Source: Parcubacteria group bacterium Greene0714_7 (GTDB lineage Bacteria; Patescibacteriota; Minisyncoccia; Phycocordibacterales; Phycocordibacteraceae). From it: a stretch of DNA of 64,000 nt. The notes under the pieces were generated by a model. It was not told where the DNA came from, searched no databases, and worked only from the letters and a program-made list of their open reading frames with translations. Below, in pieces: positions 2,896 to 54,009 of this stretch. Where the stretch lies: NCBI GenBank assembly GCA_007378985.1, contig VMHB01000001.1:192252-256251 (forward strand). Reading direction: 5' to 3'. The translations under genes were made by a program, and so were the position numbers. Each line of letters begins with the position of its first letter. The first letter of the stretch is position 1.

Positions 2896-4362
2896 ATGCT
2901 GGGATTTTTGAAAAAATCGACTGAACGATTACCTCTCTTTCTCTACAACACACTCTCTAAAACAAAAGAGGAATTTAAGACAATAAGTGGCAAAAAGGTA
3001 AAGATGTATACCTGTGGTCCCACGGTGTATGACTATGCACATATTGGAAATCTACGTGCCTACGTATTTGCTGATACGCTTCGGCGAACACTTGAATACG
3101 CTGGTCTCTCAGTGAAGCAGGTGATTAACATCACTGATGTTGGGCATCTGGCGCAGGATTCCGATGATGGAGAAGATAAGATGACCAATGCATTGAAGCG
3201 TGAAGGCAAAGAACTCACCATTCCGAACATGAAGCTTTTAGGAGAAAGCTACACTTCGCTTTTTATAGAAGACTTGAAGGCGCTCAATGTTGAAATGCCA
3301 TTCGTATTTCCACGAGCTACCGCACATATTCACGAGCAAATTGCATTTATTTCTTCGCTCTTTCAGAAAGGATATGCGTATAAAACCTCAGACGGCATAT
3401 ATTTTGATACAGCCAAGTTTCCGTCCTATGGTGCACTCGGTGTGTCTGACGGAGGACAGGCTTTGCCTTCTTTAGGTCAAGCACGCATAGTGGCAAACCC
3501 CGAAAAGCACGACCAGCGAGACTTCGCACTTTGGAAGTTTGATAGCTCTCTTGGTTTCGAAGCGCCGTGGGGAAAAGGGTTCCCCGGGTGGCACATTGAA
3601 TGTACTGCCATGGCAACCAAGTATCTTGGAAAAAGTTTTGATATACATACTGGTGGCGTTGATCACATTGCCATTCATCACAATAATGAAATTGCACAAG
3701 CAGAAGCAGTGTCGGGTAAAAGATTCGTGAACTATTGGATGCACGGGGAATTTATTACCATTGAAGGAAAACGCATTGGAAAGTCAGAAGGAAATGCGAT
3801 TCGCTTATATCAACTTCGTGAACGTAATGTAAGTCCAACTGCATATAGGTATTTATTGCTCACTGCTCATTACCGTTCGCTTTTGAATTTCACATGGGAA
3901 GCTGTACTTGGAGCGCAAACTGCACTTCAGAGGGCTCAACGCATGTTTGCGGATTTTCCAGCGGGTGGACATATTGCAACTCTCTATCGCACAAAGTTTG
4001 GGACGGCGATTAATGATGATTTGAATATACCAATCGCAATTGCGGTGATGTGGGAGCTTTTGAAAGATGATTCGGTTACACCTGCCGATAAGCGGGCGAC
4101 AATTCTCGATTTTGATCGTGTATTTGGGTTAGGCTTTGGTACAGGATCGCTTTCTGAGAGCTCTAAAGTTTCGGTCACTGCGTTATCTGATGTACCGACG
4201 GAGGTAGCGTCTTTGGTTAAAGAGCGTGAAGAGGCCAGGGGATCTAAGGATTGGGCACGCGCTGATGCACTAAGGCTTTCCATTGAAGAGCAAGGGTTTA
4301 CAGTTGAAGATGCCCCAGAAGGGCCGATCGTGCATAAAACGTCCGAAGGGTTTAAGGGATAG
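2896..4362 (+). CDS. cysS: Cysteinyl-tRNA synthetase
   Basis: Class I aaRS motifs: CGPTVYDYAHIGNLRAY (HIGH region) and a KMSKS-like GKSEGN. 488 aa is typical of CysRS. Confidence 0.9.
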   Translation: MLGFLKKSTERLPLFLYNTLSKTKEEFKTISGKKVKMYTCGPTVYDYAHIGNLRAYVFADTLRRTLEYAGLSVKQVINITDVGHLAQDSDDGEDKMTNALKREGKELTIPNMKLLGESYTSLFIEDLKALNVEMPFVFPRATAHIHEQIAFISSLFQKGYAYKTSDGIYFDTAKFPSYGALGVSDGGQALPSLGQARIVANPEKHDQRDFALWKFDSSLGFEAPWGKGFPGWHIECTAMATKYLGKSFDIHTGGVDHIAIHHNNEIAQAEAVSGKRFVNYWMHGEFITIEGKRIGKSEGNAIRLYQLRERNVSPTAYRYLLLTAHYRSLLNFTWEAVLGAQTALQRAQRMFADFPAGGHIATLYRTKFGTAINDDLNIPIAIAVMWELLKDDSVTPADKRATILDFDRVFGLGFGTGSLSESSKVSVTALSDVPTEVASLVKEREEARGSKDWARADALRLSIEEQGFTVEDAPEGPIVHKTSEGFKG

Positions 4363-6235: not shown

Positions 6236-6318
6236 TTTCTAAATTTCTACTCCTCTCGAATTTCTAACTCTTAGAAAGAACTGTGTGAGAAAATTTTTCC
6301 GCAATACCTTTATAAACT

Positions 6319-6360
6319 CATCCTCTAAACACTATCATATATGATAGTGTTTAGAGGATG
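6319..6360. promoter_or_regulatory. Perfect 42-bp palindrome overlapping the yerC-like start codon (putative operator)
   Basis: catcctctaaacactatcatatatgatagtgtttagaggatg is perfectly self-complementary. The ATG at 6358 lies inside its right arm. Confidence 0.6.
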
Positions 6361-6786
6361 AAGGTTAAACCAAAAAAACTCACAAAAGATCAAATTATTG
6401 AAACTCTTGATGCTTTATATACAGCGGCAGGGTCACTACGAGGGCGTGCCACTATGAAATTATTTCTTCGCGATCTTCTGACCGAAGGAGAGAGGGTGAT
6501 GCTTGGTAGACGCATTCTGATTGCAAGACATCTTTTACGGGGTGAAAGCTATATCAGTATTCAACGTACTCTTGGCACAAGTCCTGTAACAATACGAAAT
6601 GTAGAGAAATGGTTAGACGATCAAATGCCGGGGTACGAGACAGCGATTAAGGGTATGCAAGCAACTTTTGCAAAGCGAAAACAAAAAAGCGCATCCATTG
6701 GCACATTTGCTTACTTAAAGAAGCGTTACCCGTTGCACTTTCTCCTCTTTCCGTGGCCAAAAGGGTATCGTACGGAAGATCAGTAA
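6358..6786 (+). CDS. TrpR-like DNA-binding protein, YerC/YecD family
   Basis: 142 aa. Shares a signature with the paralog at 52390-52830 (LYTAAGS.RGR.TMKLFLRDLLTE.ER.MLGRRI.IAR.L…KRKYPLHFLLFP). Confidence 0.8.
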   Translation: MKVKPKKLTKDQIIETLDALYTAAGSLRGRATMKLFLRDLLTEGERVMLGRRILIARHLLRGESYISIQRTLGTSPVTIRNVEKWLDDQMPGYETAIKGMQATFAKRKQKSASIGTFAYLKKRYPLHFLLFPWPKGYRTEDQ

Positions 6787-6793
6787 TATAAAC

Positions 6794-6813
6794 CACTATC
6801 ATATATGATAGTG
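6794..6813. promoter_or_regulatory. Second copy of the CACTATCATATATGATAGTG palindrome, immediately downstream of the yerC-like gene and upstream of rarA
   Basis: Perfect 20-bp palindrome identical to the core of the 6319-6360 site. Confidence 0.55.
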
Positions 6814-20621: not shown

Positions 20622-21767
20622 ATGTCACGGGTAAAAATTACGGAGTATAGAGCTAAGAAACTTATACTTGGGGACGCATATGCGGGTCGTTCCTTGTCGG
20701 GTATTTCTGATGTTGGGTTTACGAAACCCAACATGGTGGTGAAGGTTGATCAAGGGATTAAGAAGCGTTTTAAGCAGGGGCTTGTTGCGGTCAATGTTTC
20801 TTCAAAGGAGGCAGGGCAGAAAGTAAGGGAATGGGAAAAGCGAGGTTTTTCTCATTTTCTTGTTGAGCCGTATGTATCGCATGAGGAGTCTGAAGAGCAG
20901 TACCTTTTTTTAGAGCGGGTACGCACGGGGATACGAGTTCTACATGCTTCTTCGGGTGGTATTGATATCGAGGCACACCCAGAACTAGTGAAAACATATC
21001 TCATAAACCCGGCACTATCATATATGGTAGTGCCGGGCATCCCAGAAAAATTCTTGAAACATCTTGTGGAGGTGTTTGAAAAAAACTTTTTCTCTTTTCT
21101 TGAAATTAATCCACTTGTTGTTCGGGGAGATGAGGTATATATCCTCGATGCAGCGGTGCTCGTCGACAGCGCGGGAATATTTTTCGTCAAAAATGGATGG
21201 AACGAAGAAGACGTTGTTGAGGGAAAGGTACGACATATTGCTGAAGAAAAAGTACAGGCACTTCAAAAAACTACCCCTGCCTCCCTGAAACTCACCATTT
21301 TGCACCCTGATGGAGGTTTGTTTTTTCTGCTTTCAGGTGGTGGTGGAAGTATTGTTATTGCAGATGAGGCAGAACTTAATGGTGTGGGTCGCTCCATTGG
21401 TAATTATGGAGAATATAGCGGTGGTCCAACTCGAGAAGAAACACATCTCTACGCACGAGAGGTGATTCAGCTATTACTTAATTCACCTGCAAAGAAGAAG
21501 GCGCTCGTGATTGCTGGAGGTATTGCAAATTTTACTGATGTTAAGTCAACATTTAAGGGTATTGTTGATGCCTTGTCAGAGTGCGCGAGCACTCTTCGAG
21601 GAAAAGGTGTAAAAGTATTTGTGCGTCGTGGCGGACCGAATGAAATTGAAGGGCTTCTTTTTATGGAAGAGTATTTAAAAAAAGAAAAATTATTTGGTTC
21701 AGTGTATGGTTCTGGTGCAGTAATTACGAGTGCAGTTGATGATGCCATTGCATTTATAAAAAAATGA
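20622..21767 (+). CDS. aclB: ATP-citrate lyase beta (ATP-grasp) subunit
   Basis: Block-by-block match to the N-terminal half of ATP-citrate lyase (MVVKVDQGIKKRFKQGLVAVN; LEINPLVV…VYILDAAVLVDS; SLKLTILHPDGG…GGGGSIV…NYGEYSGGP; IAGGIANFTDVKSTFKGIV; VFVRRGGPN). Confidence 0.85.
   Translation: MSRVKITEYRAKKLILGDAYAGRSLSGISDVGFTKPNMVVKVDQGIKKRFKQGLVAVNVSSKEAGQKVREWEKRGFSHFLVEPYVSHEESEEQYLFLERVRTGIRVLHASSGGIDIEAHPELVKTYLINPALSYMVVPGIPEKFLKHLVEVFEKNFFSFLEINPLVVRGDEVYILDAAVLVDSAGIFFVKNGWNEEDVVEGKVRHIAEEKVQALQKTTPASLKLTILHPDGGLFFLLSGGGGSIVIADEAELNGVGRSIGNYGEYSGGPTREETHLYAREVIQLLLNSPAKKKALVIAGGIANFTDVKSTFKGIVDALSECASTLRGKGVKVFVRRGGPNEIEGLLFMEEYLKKEKLFGSVYGSGAVITSAVDDAIAFIKK
21007..21036. promoter_or_regulatory. 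Near-palindrome cccggCACTATCATATATGGTAGTGccggg inside aclB, resembling the yerC-associated operator motif
   Basis: Shares CACTATCATATATG with the 6319/6794 sites and ATATGG with the 52354/52877 sites. One mismatch from a perfect palindrome. Confidence 0.3.
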
Positions 21768-47979: not shown

Positions 47980-48948
47980 GTGCTAGCTTTTAAAATGGAA
48001 AAAAATACTAAAAAAATAATCTATAGCATTTCGGGAGTTCTGATTGTTTTTCTTTTTGCTACCTACGGTGCATTTTTTGCACCTCCACTTAGTTTTCAGA
48101 AAGATTCCATTGTCACAATTTCCTCAGGGACGGGCGTACAAGAGGCTGGGGAATTGTTGAAAGCAAAGAGTGTTATTCAATCTCCATTCGTGTTTTCAAT
48201 ACTTGTTCGATTTATCTACCCCTCAGGTATTATCGCTAACCACTATTCGTTTTCTAAGCCCCAGTCAGTATTGACTGTTGCGTACCGTCTTGCAAAAGGG
48301 AAAACAGATTTGGTGCCCCTTAAAGTAACTATCCCAGAAGGCTCTAGTTCTTTCGAGATTTCAAACATCCTTGAGGGCACACTTAAGGATTTTGATTCGG
48401 TAACTTTCAAGGCACTCGCAAAATCACAAGAGGGATACTTGTTTCCTGACACCTACTTTTTCTTACCAGGAACCACACCCGACGTAGTGATTGATACGAT
48501 GCGTAAAAACTTTGATGAAAAAATAAAACCACTTGAGAGCGATATTGTTATATTTGGGAAACCAATGAGTGAGATACTCACAATGGCTTCTATTCTTGAA
48601 AGGGAAGCACGTCAGAGTGAAACTAGGAGAATGGTCGCGGGAATATTGTGGAAGCGAATATCTATTGGCATGCCACTTCAGGTTGACGCAGTGTTTGGCT
48701 ATATTTTTCAAAAGAGTGGCTATGCTCCAACGCTCACTGATTTACAAACTGATTCTCTCTACAATACATATTTACATAGAGGACTTCCACCAATGCCCAT
48801 TGGTAACCCTGGTCTTGAGGCAATACAGGACGCCGTCACGCCTACAAAAAATCCTTACCTCTATTACTTAACTGATACAGATGGGAATATATACTATGCA
48901 AAGACATTTGCGGAACATCGGCTCAACAAACTAAAAGCCAGAAACTAA
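47980..48948 (+). CDS. mltG: YceG/MltG-like endolytic transglycosylase (paralog 2)
   Basis: N-terminal TM plus the signature SLYNTYLHRGLPPMPIGNPGLEAI. Confidence 0.8.
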   Translation: MLAFKMEKNTKKIIYSISGVLIVFLFATYGAFFAPPLSFQKDSIVTISSGTGVQEAGELLKAKSVIQSPFVFSILVRFIYPSGIIANHYSFSKPQSVLTVAYRLAKGKTDLVPLKVTIPEGSSSFEISNILEGTLKDFDSVTFKALAKSQEGYLFPDTYFFLPGTTPDVVIDTMRKNFDEKIKPLESDIVIFGKPMSEILTMASILEREARQSETRRMVAGILWKRISIGMPLQVDAVFGYIFQKSGYAPTLTDLQTDSLYNTYLHRGLPPMPIGNPGLEAIQDAVTPTKNPYLYYLTDTDGNIYYAKTFAEHRLNKLKARN

Positions 48949-48960
48949 CAAGAAATTTCC

Positions 48961-49000
48961 CCATTTCTTATATATCGATTAATCGATATATAAGAAATGG
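48961..49000. promoter_or_regulatory. Perfect 40-bp palindrome immediately upstream of a consensus promoter
   Basis: ccatttcttatatatcgattaatcgatatataagaaatgg. Confidence 0.5.
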
Positions 49001-50612: not shown

Positions 50613-51446
50613 ATGTCGTTGCCTATTATTATAAAAGGAGATGGAAACAAAGAGTCTTTTGCAATAGAAAAACTTACCGAATCTCTGCGTCGCTCAGGAA
50701 CAGATGAGCATTTAGCAGAAGCTGTAGCAAAGCGCGTTGGTGCGACCGTTAAAGACGGTATGACTACTACCGCTATTTACCAAGAAGCTTTCAAAGTACT
50801 CCGCAAGGAGGAGCGTGTTTCAGCAGCCCGATATTCAATGCGCCGAGCTATTCTTGATTTAGGGCCTACTGGTTTTCCATTTGAGAAATTTGTTGCCGCG
50901 CTCATGCATGCAAAAGGATACGAAACTTCGTATGGCATCACGGTGCAGGGAAGATGTATTGATCATGAAGTTGATGTAGTAATGCGAAAAGATGGAAAGG
51001 CAATTGGCGCTGAATTAAAATTTCATAATACCCCCGGATTTAAAACAGATCTAAAGACCGCACTCTATGTGCGTGCAAGATATTGGGATATTCAATGGGG
51101 GGCTGAAGACAGGGAAGAGAAGGCTGGTATTGACGAAGGATGGCTTGTGACGAATACAAAGTTTACTTCGAAAGCTATCCAATATTCAAATTGTTCGGGC
51201 ATTAAACTTCTTGGGTGGAGTTATCCTGATGGCGCCAGTCTTTCTGACTTTATTCGAGAGACGGGTGTCTATCCCATAACGATCTTAACGACACTCTCAC
51301 AAGCAGAAAAAAATCGACTTCTTCAGTCTGGCGTAACAATGTGTCACATGGTAATGAGTGATCCCGATTCACTAAAGCGAATTGGTATTCCAGCAAAAAA
51401 ACAAAGTGAGGTAGTTGCAGAGAGTAAGGCAATTTGTCAGCTGTAA
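50613..51446 (+). CDS. ATP-cone domain fused to a restriction-endonuclease-like (Mrr catalytic, PD-(D/E)xK) domain
   Basis: N-terminus IIKGDGNKESFAIEKLTESLRRSG…AVAKRV…AARYSMRR fits an ATP-cone. Middle …GRCIDHEVDVVMRKDGKAIGAELKFHN fits the Mrr_cat D…(D/E)xK core. Confidence 0.6.
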   Translation: MSLPIIIKGDGNKESFAIEKLTESLRRSGTDEHLAEAVAKRVGATVKDGMTTTAIYQEAFKVLRKEERVSAARYSMRRAILDLGPTGFPFEKFVAALMHAKGYETSYGITVQGRCIDHEVDVVMRKDGKAIGAELKFHNTPGFKTDLKTALYVRARYWDIQWGAEDREEKAGIDEGWLVTNTKFTSKAIQYSNCSGIKLLGWSYPDGASLSDFIRETGVYPITILTTLSQAEKNRLLQSGVTMCHMVMSDPDSLKRIGIPAKKQSEVVAESKAICQL

Positions 51447-51470
51447 CATTGTATTTTTTCACAAAGCATT

Positions 51471-52307
51471 ATGTCGCAATACTATAAGCCACACCGTAAA
51501 GTTGATTGGAATTATGGAGGGCCTAGGTGGCGTCTGTCGCGTTCAAAAATAGATCTCTTCATTCAGTGTCCTCGTTGTTTTTATATTGATAATAAGCTTG
51601 GTACTGCACGACCTCCTGGATTTCCATTCAATTTGAACTCAGCCGTCGACAAACTTTTAAAAAAAGAGTTTGATATTCACCGAAATTCAAAAAGTACTCA
51701 TCCATTAATGAGTAAGTATGGTGTTGATGCTATCCCCTTTGAGCATAAAAAGATGGATACATGGAGAGAAAATTTTAAAGGGATTGATTGCTTCCATGCA
51801 CCTACTGGATTCACTGTTTCGGGCGCCATAGATGATGTATGGGTTAGTCCAAAAGGTGAGTTACACATTGTTGATTACAAGGCTACGAGTAAAGATGAGG
51901 AAGTAACCCTTGATGCCGAGTGGCAGGATGGATACAAGCGTCAAATGGAAGTGTACCAATGGCTATTTCGTCAAAACGAGTTCACTGTCTCTGACATGGG
52001 GTATTTTGTGTATGCGAACGGAAGAACAGATACCGAGGCATTCGATGGCAAGCTTGAGTTCGATGTAAAGGTAATCCCGTACGTCGGCAAAGCGGATTGG
52101 ATTGACGGGACTCTTTTGGAAATTAAAGCGTGCCTAGATGCCGATGTAATTCCAAAAACAGGCGAAGCGTGCGATTACTGTACGTACCGCAAAGCAGTTG
52201 GGGAAGTTCTTCAGCCATTTATAAAAAAAGATGTAGGCAGTTCAAAAATAAGTAAGGCAAAATCAAAAGATAGTGAAGATTCACATGAGCAATCCCTTTT
52301 TAGATAA
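51471..52307 (+). CDS. Cas4-like PD-(D/E)xK nuclease with 4-Cys Fe-S cluster signature (stand-alone)
   Basis: N-terminal CPRCF, core IVDYKAT (D-x-K), QMEVYQWLF (QxxxY) and C-terminal CDYCTYR: the RecB/Cas4-family arrangement. Confidence 0.6.
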   Translation: MSQYYKPHRKVDWNYGGPRWRLSRSKIDLFIQCPRCFYIDNKLGTARPPGFPFNLNSAVDKLLKKEFDIHRNSKSTHPLMSKYGVDAIPFEHKKMDTWRENFKGIDCFHAPTGFTVSGAIDDVWVSPKGELHIVDYKATSKDEEVTLDAEWQDGYKRQMEVYQWLFRQNEFTVSDMGYFVYANGRTDTEAFDGKLEFDVKVIPYVGKADWIDGTLLEIKACLDADVIPKTGEACDYCTYRKAVGEVLQPFIKKDVGSSKISKAKSKDSEDSHEQSLFR

Positions 52308-52353
52308 TTTTTTAAATTAACGACTAGTGTCTACAAATTTCTTTTTTGCATGA

Positions 52354-52393
52354 CTGAGAAACTTATTTCCATATATGGAAATAAGTTTCTCAG
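52354..52393. promoter_or_regulatory. Perfect 40-bp palindrome overlapping the 3' end of the second yerC-like gene
   Basis: ctgagaaacttatttccatatatggaaataagtttctcag, with a CCATATATGG core. Confidence 0.55.
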
Positions 52394-52830
52394 TCTAATT
52401 TTTTCTTTTTTGGTTCTGGAAATAGAAGAAAATGCAACGGGTATTTGCGTTTAAGTGCTCTGAAAGAAAATGGACCATAGTTCGCCTCAAAAAGGTTTTC
52501 CCTCTTTTTGAATTCTTTATCCATGCTTTTGATTGCTTCCTCGAATCCAGGAAATTGATCTTGAAGCCATCGTTCTACTCGGTATATGGTTGCCAATCCA
52601 ACGCGTAGTTTTGTGGCGATGTCATTAGCTCGTTCGCCTTGGATAAGGAGTCGAGCTATCCAAATTCGCCTTCCAAGCATGATTCTCTCGCTTTCAGTGA
52701 GAAGATCGCGCAGGAAGAGTTTCATTGTGCTTCGTCCGCGAACTGATCCCGCTGCAGTGTAGAGAATATCTAGTGTTTTCATTTTCTCCTCCTTTCCAAG
52801 GTCGCTAGATTTTCTTTTCATACTGAACAT
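52390..52830 (-). CDS. TrpR-like DNA-binding protein, YerC/YecD family (paralog 2)
   Basis: 146 aa. Clear paralog of the 6358-6786 protein (LDILYTAAGSVRGRSTMKLFLRDLLTESERIMLGRRIWIARLL…KRKYPLHFLLFP). Confidence 0.8.
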   Translation of the reverse strand: MFSMKRKSSDLGKEEKMKTLDILYTAAGSVRGRSTMKLFLRDLLTESERIMLGRRIWIARLLIQGERANDIATKLRVGLATIYRVERWLQDQFPGFEEAIKSMDKEFKKRENLFEANYGPFSFRALKRKYPLHFLLFPEPKKKKLD

Positions 52831-52832
52831 AT

Positions 52833-52850
52833 TTTCATATATGGAAATAT
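52833..52850. promoter_or_regulatory. Near-palindromic TTTTCATATATGGAAA site immediately upstream of the yerC paralog-2 start
   Basis: Half-sites TTTTCATAT and ATATGGAAA, 3-8 bp from the start codon (minus strand). Confidence 0.5.
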
Positions 52851-52874
52851 CTGCACGAAAACATGGTGTATAAC

Positions 52875-52918
52875 TTCACTCACATGTATTTCCATATATG
52901 GAAATACATGTGAGTGAA
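52875..52918. promoter_or_regulatory. Perfect 44-bp palindrome with CCATATATGG core upstream of yerC paralog 2
   Basis: ttcactcacatgtatttccatatatggaaatacatgtgagtgaa. Confidence 0.55.
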
Positions 52919-52969
52919 CAGATTTGGGCGTGCAAGATGAGCTAGGCAAAAGGGTGGTATATTTGATAA

Positions 52970-53257
52970 ATGGTGCAGGTATTTTCAAAGAAGTTCAAAG
53001 ATGATTTCAGGGCTCGAGTGGTGGCGGTGGTAAAGAAAATACCGCGCGGAAAAACTATGAGTTATGGGCAGGTTGCTCTGGCAGCTGGGCGTCCAAATGC
53101 AGGAAGGGCAGTTGGAACTATTATGGCGGGAAATCAGGATAAGGGCGTGCCGTGTCACCGAGTGATTCGCTCTGATGGGAAAATTGGGGGCTACAACGGT
53201 CTTCGAGATGGTTTGAGTAAGGAAGAACTTTTAAGAAAGGAAGGGGCGATTAAATAG
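52970..53257 (+). CDS. ogt: Methylated-DNA--protein-cysteine methyltransferase (DNA-binding/active-site domain only)
   Basis: Active-site motif VPCHRVIRSDGKIGGY. At 95 aa it is the C-terminal domain alone. Confidence 0.8.
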   Translation: MVQVFSKKFKDDFRARVVAVVKKIPRGKTMSYGQVALAAGRPNAGRAVGTIMAGNQDKGVPCHRVIRSDGKIGGYNGLRDGLSKEELLRKEGAIK

Positions 53258-53325
53258 ATTCAAGGTACAGGATTCAAGAAGCAAGAATTAAAAAACCTTT
53301 ACTCCTGAATCGCGAATCTTACTTC

Positions 53326-54009
53326 TTGAATGCAAGGCATATGGAAATACGCATTGAGCAATCTTGGAAAGAAAAATTGAAAGAGGAATTTGAAAAGCCA
53401 TATTTCAAAACACTGATTTCATTTGTTAAAGATGCCTATACAAAAGGTTCGGTATACCCACATCCAAAAAATATCTTCCGTGCGTTTGATTTATGTCCAT
53501 TTGGTGCGGTTAAGGTAGTTATCTTGGGTCAGGATCCGTATCACGGAGAAGGCCAGGCAAATGGCCTTTCGTTTGCAGTAGAGGAAGGAGTACGACCACC
53601 GCCATCGCTTCAAAATATTTTCAAAGAAATTCAATCAGATATTGGTAAGCCTCTTGTTCATACGAACGGTGACTTATCAAGGTGGGCAACGCAGGGAGTA
53701 CTACTTTTAAACGCAACGCTCACTGTGCAAGCGAATACGGCAGGCTCGCATCAGGGTAAAGGTTGGGAAGAGTTTACTGATGCGGCAATTAAATTACTTT
53801 CAGAAGAACGTGAACACCTAGTGTTTATTCTTTGGGGTAATTATGCCAAAGCAAAAGGTGCGCATATTGATCGCACTAAACATCTTGTTATTGAATCGCC
53901 ACACCCATCACCTTTCTCGGCCTTTAGTGGATTTTTTGGAAGTAAACCTTTCAGTAAAACAAACACGTATCTTATGGTTAAGGGACACGCTCCTATTGAT
54001 TGGCTCTGA
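53326..54009 (+). CDS. ung: Uracil-DNA glycosylase (family 1)
   Basis: VVILGQDPYHGEGQANGLSF water-activating loop, HPSPFS and C-terminal motifs. Confidence 0.9.
   Translation: MNARHMEIRIEQSWKEKLKEEFEKPYFKTLISFVKDAYTKGSVYPHPKNIFRAFDLCPFGAVKVVILGQDPYHGEGQANGLSFAVEEGVRPPPSLQNIFKEIQSDIGKPLVHTNGDLSRWATQGVLLLNATLTVQANTAGSHQGKGWEEFTDAAIKLLSEEREHLVFILWGNYAKAKGAHIDRTKHLVIESPHPSPFSAFSGFFGSKPFSKTNTYLMVKGHAPIDWL

Follow-up and report, generated by a model that had tools for sequence, protein, structure and literature searches.

In a 64-kb stretch of DNA from Parcubacteria group bacterium Greene0714_7 (referred to as the window in the rest of the text), two paralogous genes, here called A and B, code for small helix-turn-helix (HTH) proteins of the TrpR family, and each is bracketed by copies of a palindrome carrying a core of its own. 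Judging from site geometry, conservation across Patescibacteria and covariation between protein and site, these palindromes are probably the cognate operators of the TrpR-family dimer encoded between them, with an upstream copy for autorepression and a downstream copy kept by selection. Each half-site (N7 followed by ATA) would be read by the HTH and, the paralogues having diverged in both protein and operator, each would read its own sites only. All coordinates are positions in the window, and labels of the L001 type denote loci fetched for comparison.

The exact 20-mer CACTATCATATATGATAGTG occurs at 6330-6349 and 6794-6813, on either side of gene A (6358-6786), and a third copy with a single mismatch lies at 21013-21032. 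The chance expectation for this sequence is 0.01 matches at three or fewer mismatches, and 0 of 100 shuffles reached 3. All six occurrences of CATATATG in the window fall within operator-type sites, of which there are also six, five of them adjoining gene A or gene B. The initial annotation, made from the letters alone, had reported an exact 20-bp copy of the core between the stop codon of gene A and rarA, and this is borne out: the copy begins 8 nt past the stop (6786), approximately 70-90 nt ahead of the likely rarA start. The annotation had also described a 42-bp palindrome (6319-6360) spanning the gene A start codon. The palindrome is in fact 44 bp long (6318-6361) and does cover the ATG (6358-6360), but this overlap results from a recent 11-nt extension and is not conserved. 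Measured from its centre, the upstream site precedes the ATG by 18.5 nt, the most frequent distance class in the family. Gene A is flanked by genes coding for TGT and RarA/MgsA; beyond the adjoining rarA, a likely uvrB was noted farther downstream from its translation only.

Table 1. Genes and predicted operator sites of the two TrpR-family loci in the window.
Feature	Position	Strand	Description
Gene A upstream operator (predicted)	6318..6361	no strand	44-bp perfect palindrome; 20-bp core 6330-6349 = CACTATCATATATGATAGTG
Gene A	6358..6786	+	142-aa TrpR-family HTH protein with a C-terminal extension of ~40 aa containing the motif KRYPLHFLLFPWPK
Gene A downstream operator copy (predicted)	6794..6813	no strand	Exact 20-bp palindrome
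Distal A-type site	21008..21037	no strand	30-bp near-palindrome CCCGG-CACTATCATATATGGTAGTG-CCGGG with one mismatched pair
Gene B downstream operator (predicted)	52352..52395	no strand	44-bp perfect palindrome; core 52364-52383 = TATTTCCATATATGGAAATA; overlaps the gene B stop
Gene B	52390..52830	-	Paralogue, 58% identical to gene A
Gene B start-proximal operator (predicted)	52830..52849	no strand	9 of 10 palindrome pairs; centre 18.5 nt before ATG 52821
Gene B second upstream operator (predicted)	52875..52918	no strand	44-bp perfect palindrome; core 52887-52906

Gene B had been singled out as a paralogue of like layout with a different flank specificity, and this description stands, all gene B sites carrying the core TATTTCCATATATGGAAATA instead. 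The likely true start of gene B is the second ATG at 52821 (MKRK...), which corresponds to the family-consensus start. Its second upstream palindrome sits in a divergent intergenic region toward a gene coding for an MGMT DNA-binding domain at 52970, while the palindrome at its 3' end is followed on the plus strand by a T-rich stretch and so may terminate the convergent PD-(D/E)XK gene. Gene B lies within a DNA-repair-type gene cluster (50613-54009) that includes an ATP-cone/Mrr-like nuclease, the PD-(D/E)XK nuclease, a 95-aa protein with an MGMT DNA-binding domain only and, without a family-library scan, a likely uracil-DNA glycosylase.

Conservation of this arrangement was assessed in 80 loci fetched from different Patescibacteria genomes and searched for zero-spacer palindromes. 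Together with the two window genes and two second copies, these loci gave 84 family genes, and a near-perfect 20-bp palindrome of the form N7-ATATAT-N7 within 130 bp of a gene end was counted as a site. Such a site was found at one end or the other of 75 of the 84 genes and at both ends of 63, so that site and gene are conserved together in related genomes, a check that the initial annotation had proposed. Upstream, most centres precede the start codon by 16-18 nt or 28-32 nt; downstream, most follow the stop at 8-45 nt. The two copies within one locus carry a matching core, yet 46 distinct 7-nt cores occur among the 75 genes. Several paralogues per genome occur in this family, and those sharing a genome differ in core (e.g. 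L002, L010, L058 and L079). This conserved bracket, its locus-specific core and the overlap of the upstream copy with the predicted core promoter (see below) support the view, already put forward in the initial annotation, that the two copies form an operator pair.

A few sites depart from the common type. Variant centres were seen at L052:2971-2996 and 3487-3506, L072:4069-4090 and L080:5999-6016; among them are one paralogue flanked by CTTATAAG-centred palindromes, a distal site with the arms of the regulator's site but a GCTATAGC centre, and one centre that is 2 bp shorter (CATATG). At L010:305-324, a palindrome (CGGTTTGATATATCAAACCG) of a type unlike the regulator site of that locus lies 16 bp before an open reading frame (ORF) whose N-terminus resembles tryptophanyl-tRNA synthetase, as judged by eye without a family-library scan.

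Protein A matches a protein of Parcubacteria group bacterium Greene0714_7 at 100% identity. A word-indexed search with it returned 903 homologues, and an exhaustive profile search yielded 555 family clusters at 50% identity (E ≤ 1e-10). The products of genes A and B both pass the gathering threshold of Pfam Trp_repressor (PF01371; 41.2 and 48.7 bits, threshold 27), whereas they fall under the NCBIfam cutoffs for YerC/YecD, i.e. HisR (TIGR02531; 27.9 and 26.3 bits, cutoff 42.2), and for the TrpR equivalog (TIGR01321; 19.2 and 27.7 bits, cutoff 67.25). By these profile scores, the two proteins are members of the Pfam TrpR family that lie outside the curated YerC/HisR and TrpR subfamilies. A profile built from 121 family members matches the YerC/HisR-type structures 3frw, 3kor and 3g1c at E values of 1e-11 to 1e-8, compared to 4e-4 for E. 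coli TrpR. The AlphaFold2 model of protein A (pLDDT 83.7) contains the six TrpR helices (residues 10-26, 30-40, 43-60, 65-72, 76-87 and 91-110) plus two short C-terminal helices, and Foldseek superimposed it on 3frw with a TM score of 0.83 (normalised by target length; rmsd 2.0 Å) and on 1tro with a TM score of 0.59. Nothing in the solved TrpR and HisR structures corresponds to the last ~40 residues, which carry the conserved motif KKYPLHFLLFPWPK. Within this motif (residues ~105-135 of protein A), K121 and P125 never vary, and conservation reaches 90% or more at Y124, H127 and F128-F131. Finally, the invariant or near-invariant residues T42 and R52 align with T44 and R54 of E. coli TrpR, which belong to its tryptophan pocket, and would fit a small-molecule co-repressor.

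The link between each protein and its site is carried by covariation. The strongest signal connects residue 77 with the base at -4 (z = 15.7): G is the base in 37 of 38 cases with Asp77, and C is the partner of other residues. Arg66 is found with G at -9 in all cases (21/21), Arg76 with G at -8 in 9 of 10, and Trp or Gly at position 80 with T at -6 in 19 of 23. In the profile alignment, residues 66, 76, 77 and 80 fall on R69, I79, A80 and T83 of E. coli TrpR, which together with T81 and R84 are the six DNA-contact residues of that protein (PMC9413887). A tree from which the HTH columns had been left out puts the number of changes at an estimated 8-15 for each covarying character; noisy as this tree is, the counts argue against a single ancestral split. 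The two proteins of the window, with I66, P76, V77 and R80 in A and N66, L76, A77 and Y80 in B, obey the code: neither has Asp at 77, and both go with C at -4. In protein A, P76 is found with C at -8 and R80 with A at -6. When independent support was sought in metagenome loci, only three non-redundant genes passed our filters, and all were consistent with the code. We conclude from these associations that residues 66, 76, 77 and 80 probably set the bases at -9, -8, -4 and -6, respectively. The initial annotation had regarded genes A and B as a natural case of protein and operator varying together, a reading that residue-base covariation at TrpR contact positions now extends well past this window.

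The position of the upstream copy suggests how it could act. Among 83 family genes, a Shine-Dalgarno-like motif was found in only 5, while 48 had a TAnnnT hexamer whose end stands 5-8 nt ahead of the start codon (background, 4.4%) and T occupied position -1 in 66, features that together point to leaderless mRNAs. At gene A, the -10-like hexamer TAGTGT (6345-6350) lies in the right arm of the palindrome, 7 nt before ATG 6358. In the main class of family loci, this hexamer forms the outer portion of the right operator arm, and in a second class the operator covers the -35/spacer region; upstream copies often have A at +10, which makes the hexamer TAGTAT, whereas G stays at this position in downstream copies (by eye, at about eight loci). 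The upstream operator would thus overlap the core promoter of a leaderless, monocistronic mRNA. Since the operator lies over the promoter in either class, a bound dimer would occlude it and shut off its own transcription. Restriction-modification C proteins offer a parallel: they are small HTH dimers whose palindromic C-boxes lie over their own leaderless promoter and whose specificity groups avoid cross-talk. The family described here would share these traits, as far as its predicted operators and promoters indicate. Unlike it, C proteins belong to another HTH family and have C-boxes upstream only, and no restriction-modification genes are consistently adjacent to the 84 loci. As a side observation, of the 42 ORFs of at least 150 aa in the window, 40 could be assessed; 2 of these have a Shine-Dalgarno-like motif and 16 a TAnnnT hexamer whose last base stands 5-8 nt ahead of the first ATG, so leaderless or near-leaderless expression may be common in the source genome.

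Copies of the site also occur away from the regulator gene. A metagenome scan for the 18-bp core ACTATCATATATGATAGT returned 80 loci, in which 22 sites adjoin a family gene and 28 lie too near a contig end for assessment. The remaining 48, out of 70 assessable sites, are flanked by 650 bp or more in either direction, without a family gene. Most of these gene-less sites are intergenic and stand beside housekeeping genes (gyrB, tig, pgk and dnaG, with mutY also near distal sites); counted from the listing, the intergenic copies occupy 10 convergent, 20 tandem and 3 divergent gaps. Some hold their position in diverged species, such as the copies 49-50 bp after pgk at 65% protein identity (L114:12935 and L129:883) and those ~150 bp after tig, which codes for trigger factor, at 59% identity (L098:2588 and L127:4389); in both pairs, the outer arms carry mirrored changes that keep the symmetry. 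One quarter of the gene-less sites lie inside ORFs (purD, murC, argS, a prmC-like methyltransferase gene and mutY), where they are read as TIIYDS or LSYMIV. The exact core is in frame as TIIYDS at L157:9368, L152:6953, L149:13288, L155:3768, L099:3549 and L118:2016, and the mutY copies of two species at 58% identity coincide in position. The distal site of the window likewise falls inside an ORF, 20622-21767, which is ATP-citrate-lyase-like, and encodes ALSYMVV. Distal sites amount to roughly one per 50-90 kb of fetched sequence, according to a rough count from the listings. Because core copies occur without the regulator both at gene ends and inside ORFs, the regulator is predicted to have a few further targets; these would be a few sites per genome, after or inside housekeeping genes. 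We considered whether distal copies are promoter operators of leaderless genes and rejected this, as an ORF start lies within 90 nt of only ~10 of the 48 copies and the offsets of 17.5 or 29.5 nt are not preferred.

Could the palindrome-gene-palindrome unit be a small mobile or selfish cassette, with the gene-less copies as scars or spread elements? The initial annotation had itself envisaged that the palindromes might be terminal repeats of such a cassette, recurring at many unrelated loci without the regulator. The core is indeed present at many regulator-less loci, but as single sites and not as terminal repeats, and the gene is syntenically stable. The comparison that comes to mind is with RAYT genes, which are flanked by lineage-specific REP/REPIN palindromes, have extra copies near gene 3' ends and can exist as several lineages, each with its own palindrome, in one genome. 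Gene A and its relatives resemble them in that identical, lineage-specific palindromes flank the gene, extra intergenic copies lie near gene 3' ends and lineages with different palindromes can occur together in a genome. Further points in favour of a cassette are that the family gene lies on the strand opposite to both neighbours in 38 of the 84 loci, that the same 18-mer recurs at the 48 gene-less loci, some of them in ORFs, and that the palindrome arms change quickly. Against it, synteny is kept: the tgt-A-rarA order is common to the window and L001, the MGMT-like/B/PD-(D/E)XK arrangement to the window, L052 and L079, and the order obg-gene-secA recurs in 9-10 genomes at 55-65% identity, yet with differing cores. 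The neighbours of the 84 loci form 111 clusters, mostly of housekeeping genes. Paralogues such as A and B are diverged and not recent copies. The Pfam scan of proteins A and B gave only weak HTH_23, HTH_28 and HTH_7 matches besides Trp_repressor and no nuclease, transposase, recombinase or HUH/Y1 domain (RAYT proteins have an IS200/IS605-type HUH/Y1 nuclease), and a search of viral contigs found no relatives. In the window, copy number appears low for a RAYT/REP-like system, with six sites in 64 kb, five of them next to genes A and B. Finally, PurD and MurC encoded by the site-bearing ORFs align with their solved homologues with a length difference of no more than 1-2 residues at the site, so these in-ORF copies were written by substitution and not by insertion of an element; an insertion origin was rejected for both genes. 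On the strength of the conserved synteny, the missing catalytic or recombinase domain and the lack of viral relatives, we rejected the cassette, which we find hardly credible.

The same distal sites bear on another reading, in which the family would not be a metabolic repressor but a set of proteins that bind specific DNA sequences as roadblocks, boundaries or chromosome organisers, comparable in function to Reb1/TTF-I, mTERF or MatP/ParB; sites would mark gene ends and a few intragenic positions, and the proteins' own genes would be flanked for dosage feedback. The stable positions after pgk and tig and within mutY, the selection of sites even inside conserved enzymes, their scarcity at gene starts and the conserved C-terminal extension, absent from TrpR and HisR, all agree with it. 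The small number of sites per genome does not, nor do T42 and R52, whose match to the TrpR pocket would suit a small-molecule co-repressor. As a general account of the family, we hold this to be highly improbable. A specific version, in which Patescibacteria-specific roadblock or boundary factors, rather than metabolite-sensing promoter repressors, would each have private sites and be dosed by their own flanking sites, is somewhat less remote, though still unlikely.

Several of our own results weigh against the operator reading that we favour. Few distal copies are placed at gene starts, and there is no clear sign of a classical regulon. The covariation counts are inflated by shared ancestry and by a noisy neighbour-joining tree. 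No clear TAnnnT hexamer was seen at the expected place in the start-proximal region of gene B. In most loci, the genes on either side of the downstream copy are convergent, so it is not a promoter operator there. The 63 two-site spacings (441-586 bp) show no helical phasing (Rayleigh p ~0.2 at 10.5 bp); as loops of ~470 bp tolerate any phase, this is weak evidence, neither for nor against looping. Lastly, about one third of the sites have symmetric A-tract/T-tract flanks like those of bidirectional terminators.

This last point bears on a further alternative, namely that the palindromes act mainly at the RNA level, as bidirectional intrinsic-terminator or insulator hairpins closing off a small gene, with a secondary link to the protein; in a milder form, they would serve both as operators and as hairpins. 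The preference of sites for gene 3' ends, evident from the gap counts given above, would be expected from such a role. Runs of at least three T at +11 to +18 follow 32% of sites compared to 12% in the background, and symmetric A/T tracts flank 24%. Downstream palindromes are somewhat longer than upstream ones (median 22 versus 20 bp; at least 30 bp in 19/70 versus 11/74), and a T-rich tail follows 52352-52395 on the plus strand. The window also contains a perfect palindrome of the form A5-CTCTCATGCATGAGAG-T5 (2822-2847) that resembles a bidirectional terminator, although it is unrelated to the operator sites. Hairpins would nevertheless leave unexplained why site bases covary with residues aligned to the major-groove contacts of TrpR. 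The upstream copy would stay untranscribed from the gene's own leaderless promoter, the T-run is missing in two thirds of sites, and copies within coding regions cannot terminate those genes. At gene A, no T-run follows the downstream copy on the plus strand, the direction of transcription, and the sole terminator-like call is on the minus strand. We judge a mainly RNA-level function, including its milder form, to be very doubtful.

If the palindromes are operators, the near-ideal state in which the downstream copy is kept suggests that it is under selection for the same protein. This copy most likely acts in one or more of three ways: it could raise local occupancy or close a loop of ~460-480 bp over the gene, it could block transcription entering or leaving the gene, or it could form an RNA hairpin at the end of the gene when transcribed. 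Precedents for paired operators that loop are lac O1-O2, gal OE-OI and lambda OL-OR, the last with cI between two operator regions. Here too, two cognate sites would lie several hundred bp apart, one at a promoter and one beyond. The looping pairs differ in that helical phasing was not found for our sites and that the second site stands tight after the stop codon, often between convergent genes; looping is unsupported.

The palindromes themselves appear to grow. Perfect symmetry reaches past the 20-bp core to as much as 62 bp, and the arms are specific to each locus. Against the 89%-identical orthologue in L001, the window has gained an insertion of 11 nt, CATCCTCTAAA, which reproduces the right flank TTTAGAGGATG as its reverse complement, and in L001 the flank after the downstream copy mirrors the last codons of the gene, at its 3' end. 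Both indicate that long arms are recent and lineage-specific. Copying of one flank onto the other, through a hairpin or by template switching, would best explain them, and the long perfect outer arms would lie outside the recognition site. Because the arms grew, the overlap with the start codon of gene A is a by-product. The 11-nt duplication of the flank would be a clear case from nature of a palindrome that lengthens as one of its arms is copied. Mismatch types beyond the first break in symmetry, which might separate selection at the RNA level from selection at the DNA level, were too few to be informative. The three long palindromes of the window (6318-6361, 52352-52395 and 52875-52918) are all exactly 44 bp, with unrelated outer arms. 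We rejected 44 bp as a special length, since lengths range from 16 to 62 bp without a peak at 44; the agreement of the three may be a coincidence.

Among characterised systems, E. coli TrpR (trp, aroH and trpR operators) has the same fold and HTH as the proteins described here and, like their predicted sites, palindromic operators overlapping promoters, including the repressor's own; the covarying and pocket residues correspond as given above. Sequence similarity to TrpR is weak (E = 4e-4), the equivalog cutoff is not reached and the operator sequence differs; moreover, E. coli has one TrpR, without a bracketing arrangement. The nearest relatives by profile and fold are HisR proteins (YerC/YecD) of Firmicutes (PMC9413887; 3frw, 3kor, 3g1c). 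Operators of both TrpR and HisR are 20-bp palindromes, and roughly half of the genomes studied have a HisR site ahead of hisR itself (PMC9413887). The predicted sites described here match this architecture, and the outer cac...gtg of the HisR consensus cacTTTAnnnnnnTAAAgtg recurs in the A-type site. HisR acts on his biosynthesis or transport genes from sites ahead of his operons; the genes near distal sites here are gyrB, tig, pgk, mutY and dnaG. Unlike HisR, proteins A and B fall below the NCBIfam YerC/YecD cutoff, and the family has the conserved C-terminal extension of ~40 aa and sites on both sides of the gene with an invariant ATATAT centre and hypervariable arms (46 cores in 75 genes); its genes are not beside his genes, none of which are recurrent neighbours of the 84 loci. 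HisR is also usually single-copy (PMC9413887), whereas several paralogues per genome are found here. Taken together, these likenesses suggest that the system works like an auto-repressor of the TrpR/HisR type.

A literature search for an earlier description in the candidate phyla radiation found only an incidental mention of a trp repressor gene beside a TrpRS operon. Compared with the literature found, the new elements are sites flanking the gene at both ends, an invariant ATATAT centre between rapidly diverging arms, the several private paralogues per genome, the C-terminal extension, and the apparently selected sites at gene ends and inside genes. To our knowledge, transcription control in Patescibacteria, which cannot be grown alone, is almost wholly uncharted, and this family, with its 555 clusters and several paralogues per genome, provides a concrete and testable regulator-site system for these bacteria. 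At least 46 natural protein/operator variants and a simple code (Asp77-G, Arg66-G, Arg76-G and Trp/Gly80-T) form a series in which the evolution of HTH specificity can be followed, and the variants could be a source of orthogonal repressor/operator pairs. Exact copies of the operator retained within conserved enzymes would reflect unusually strong selection for predicted binding sites outside promoters.

One further palindrome was noted in the window, a 40-bp perfect zero-spacer palindrome at 48961-49000 that is centred on TCGATTAATCGA and lies directly after a gene ending at 48948.

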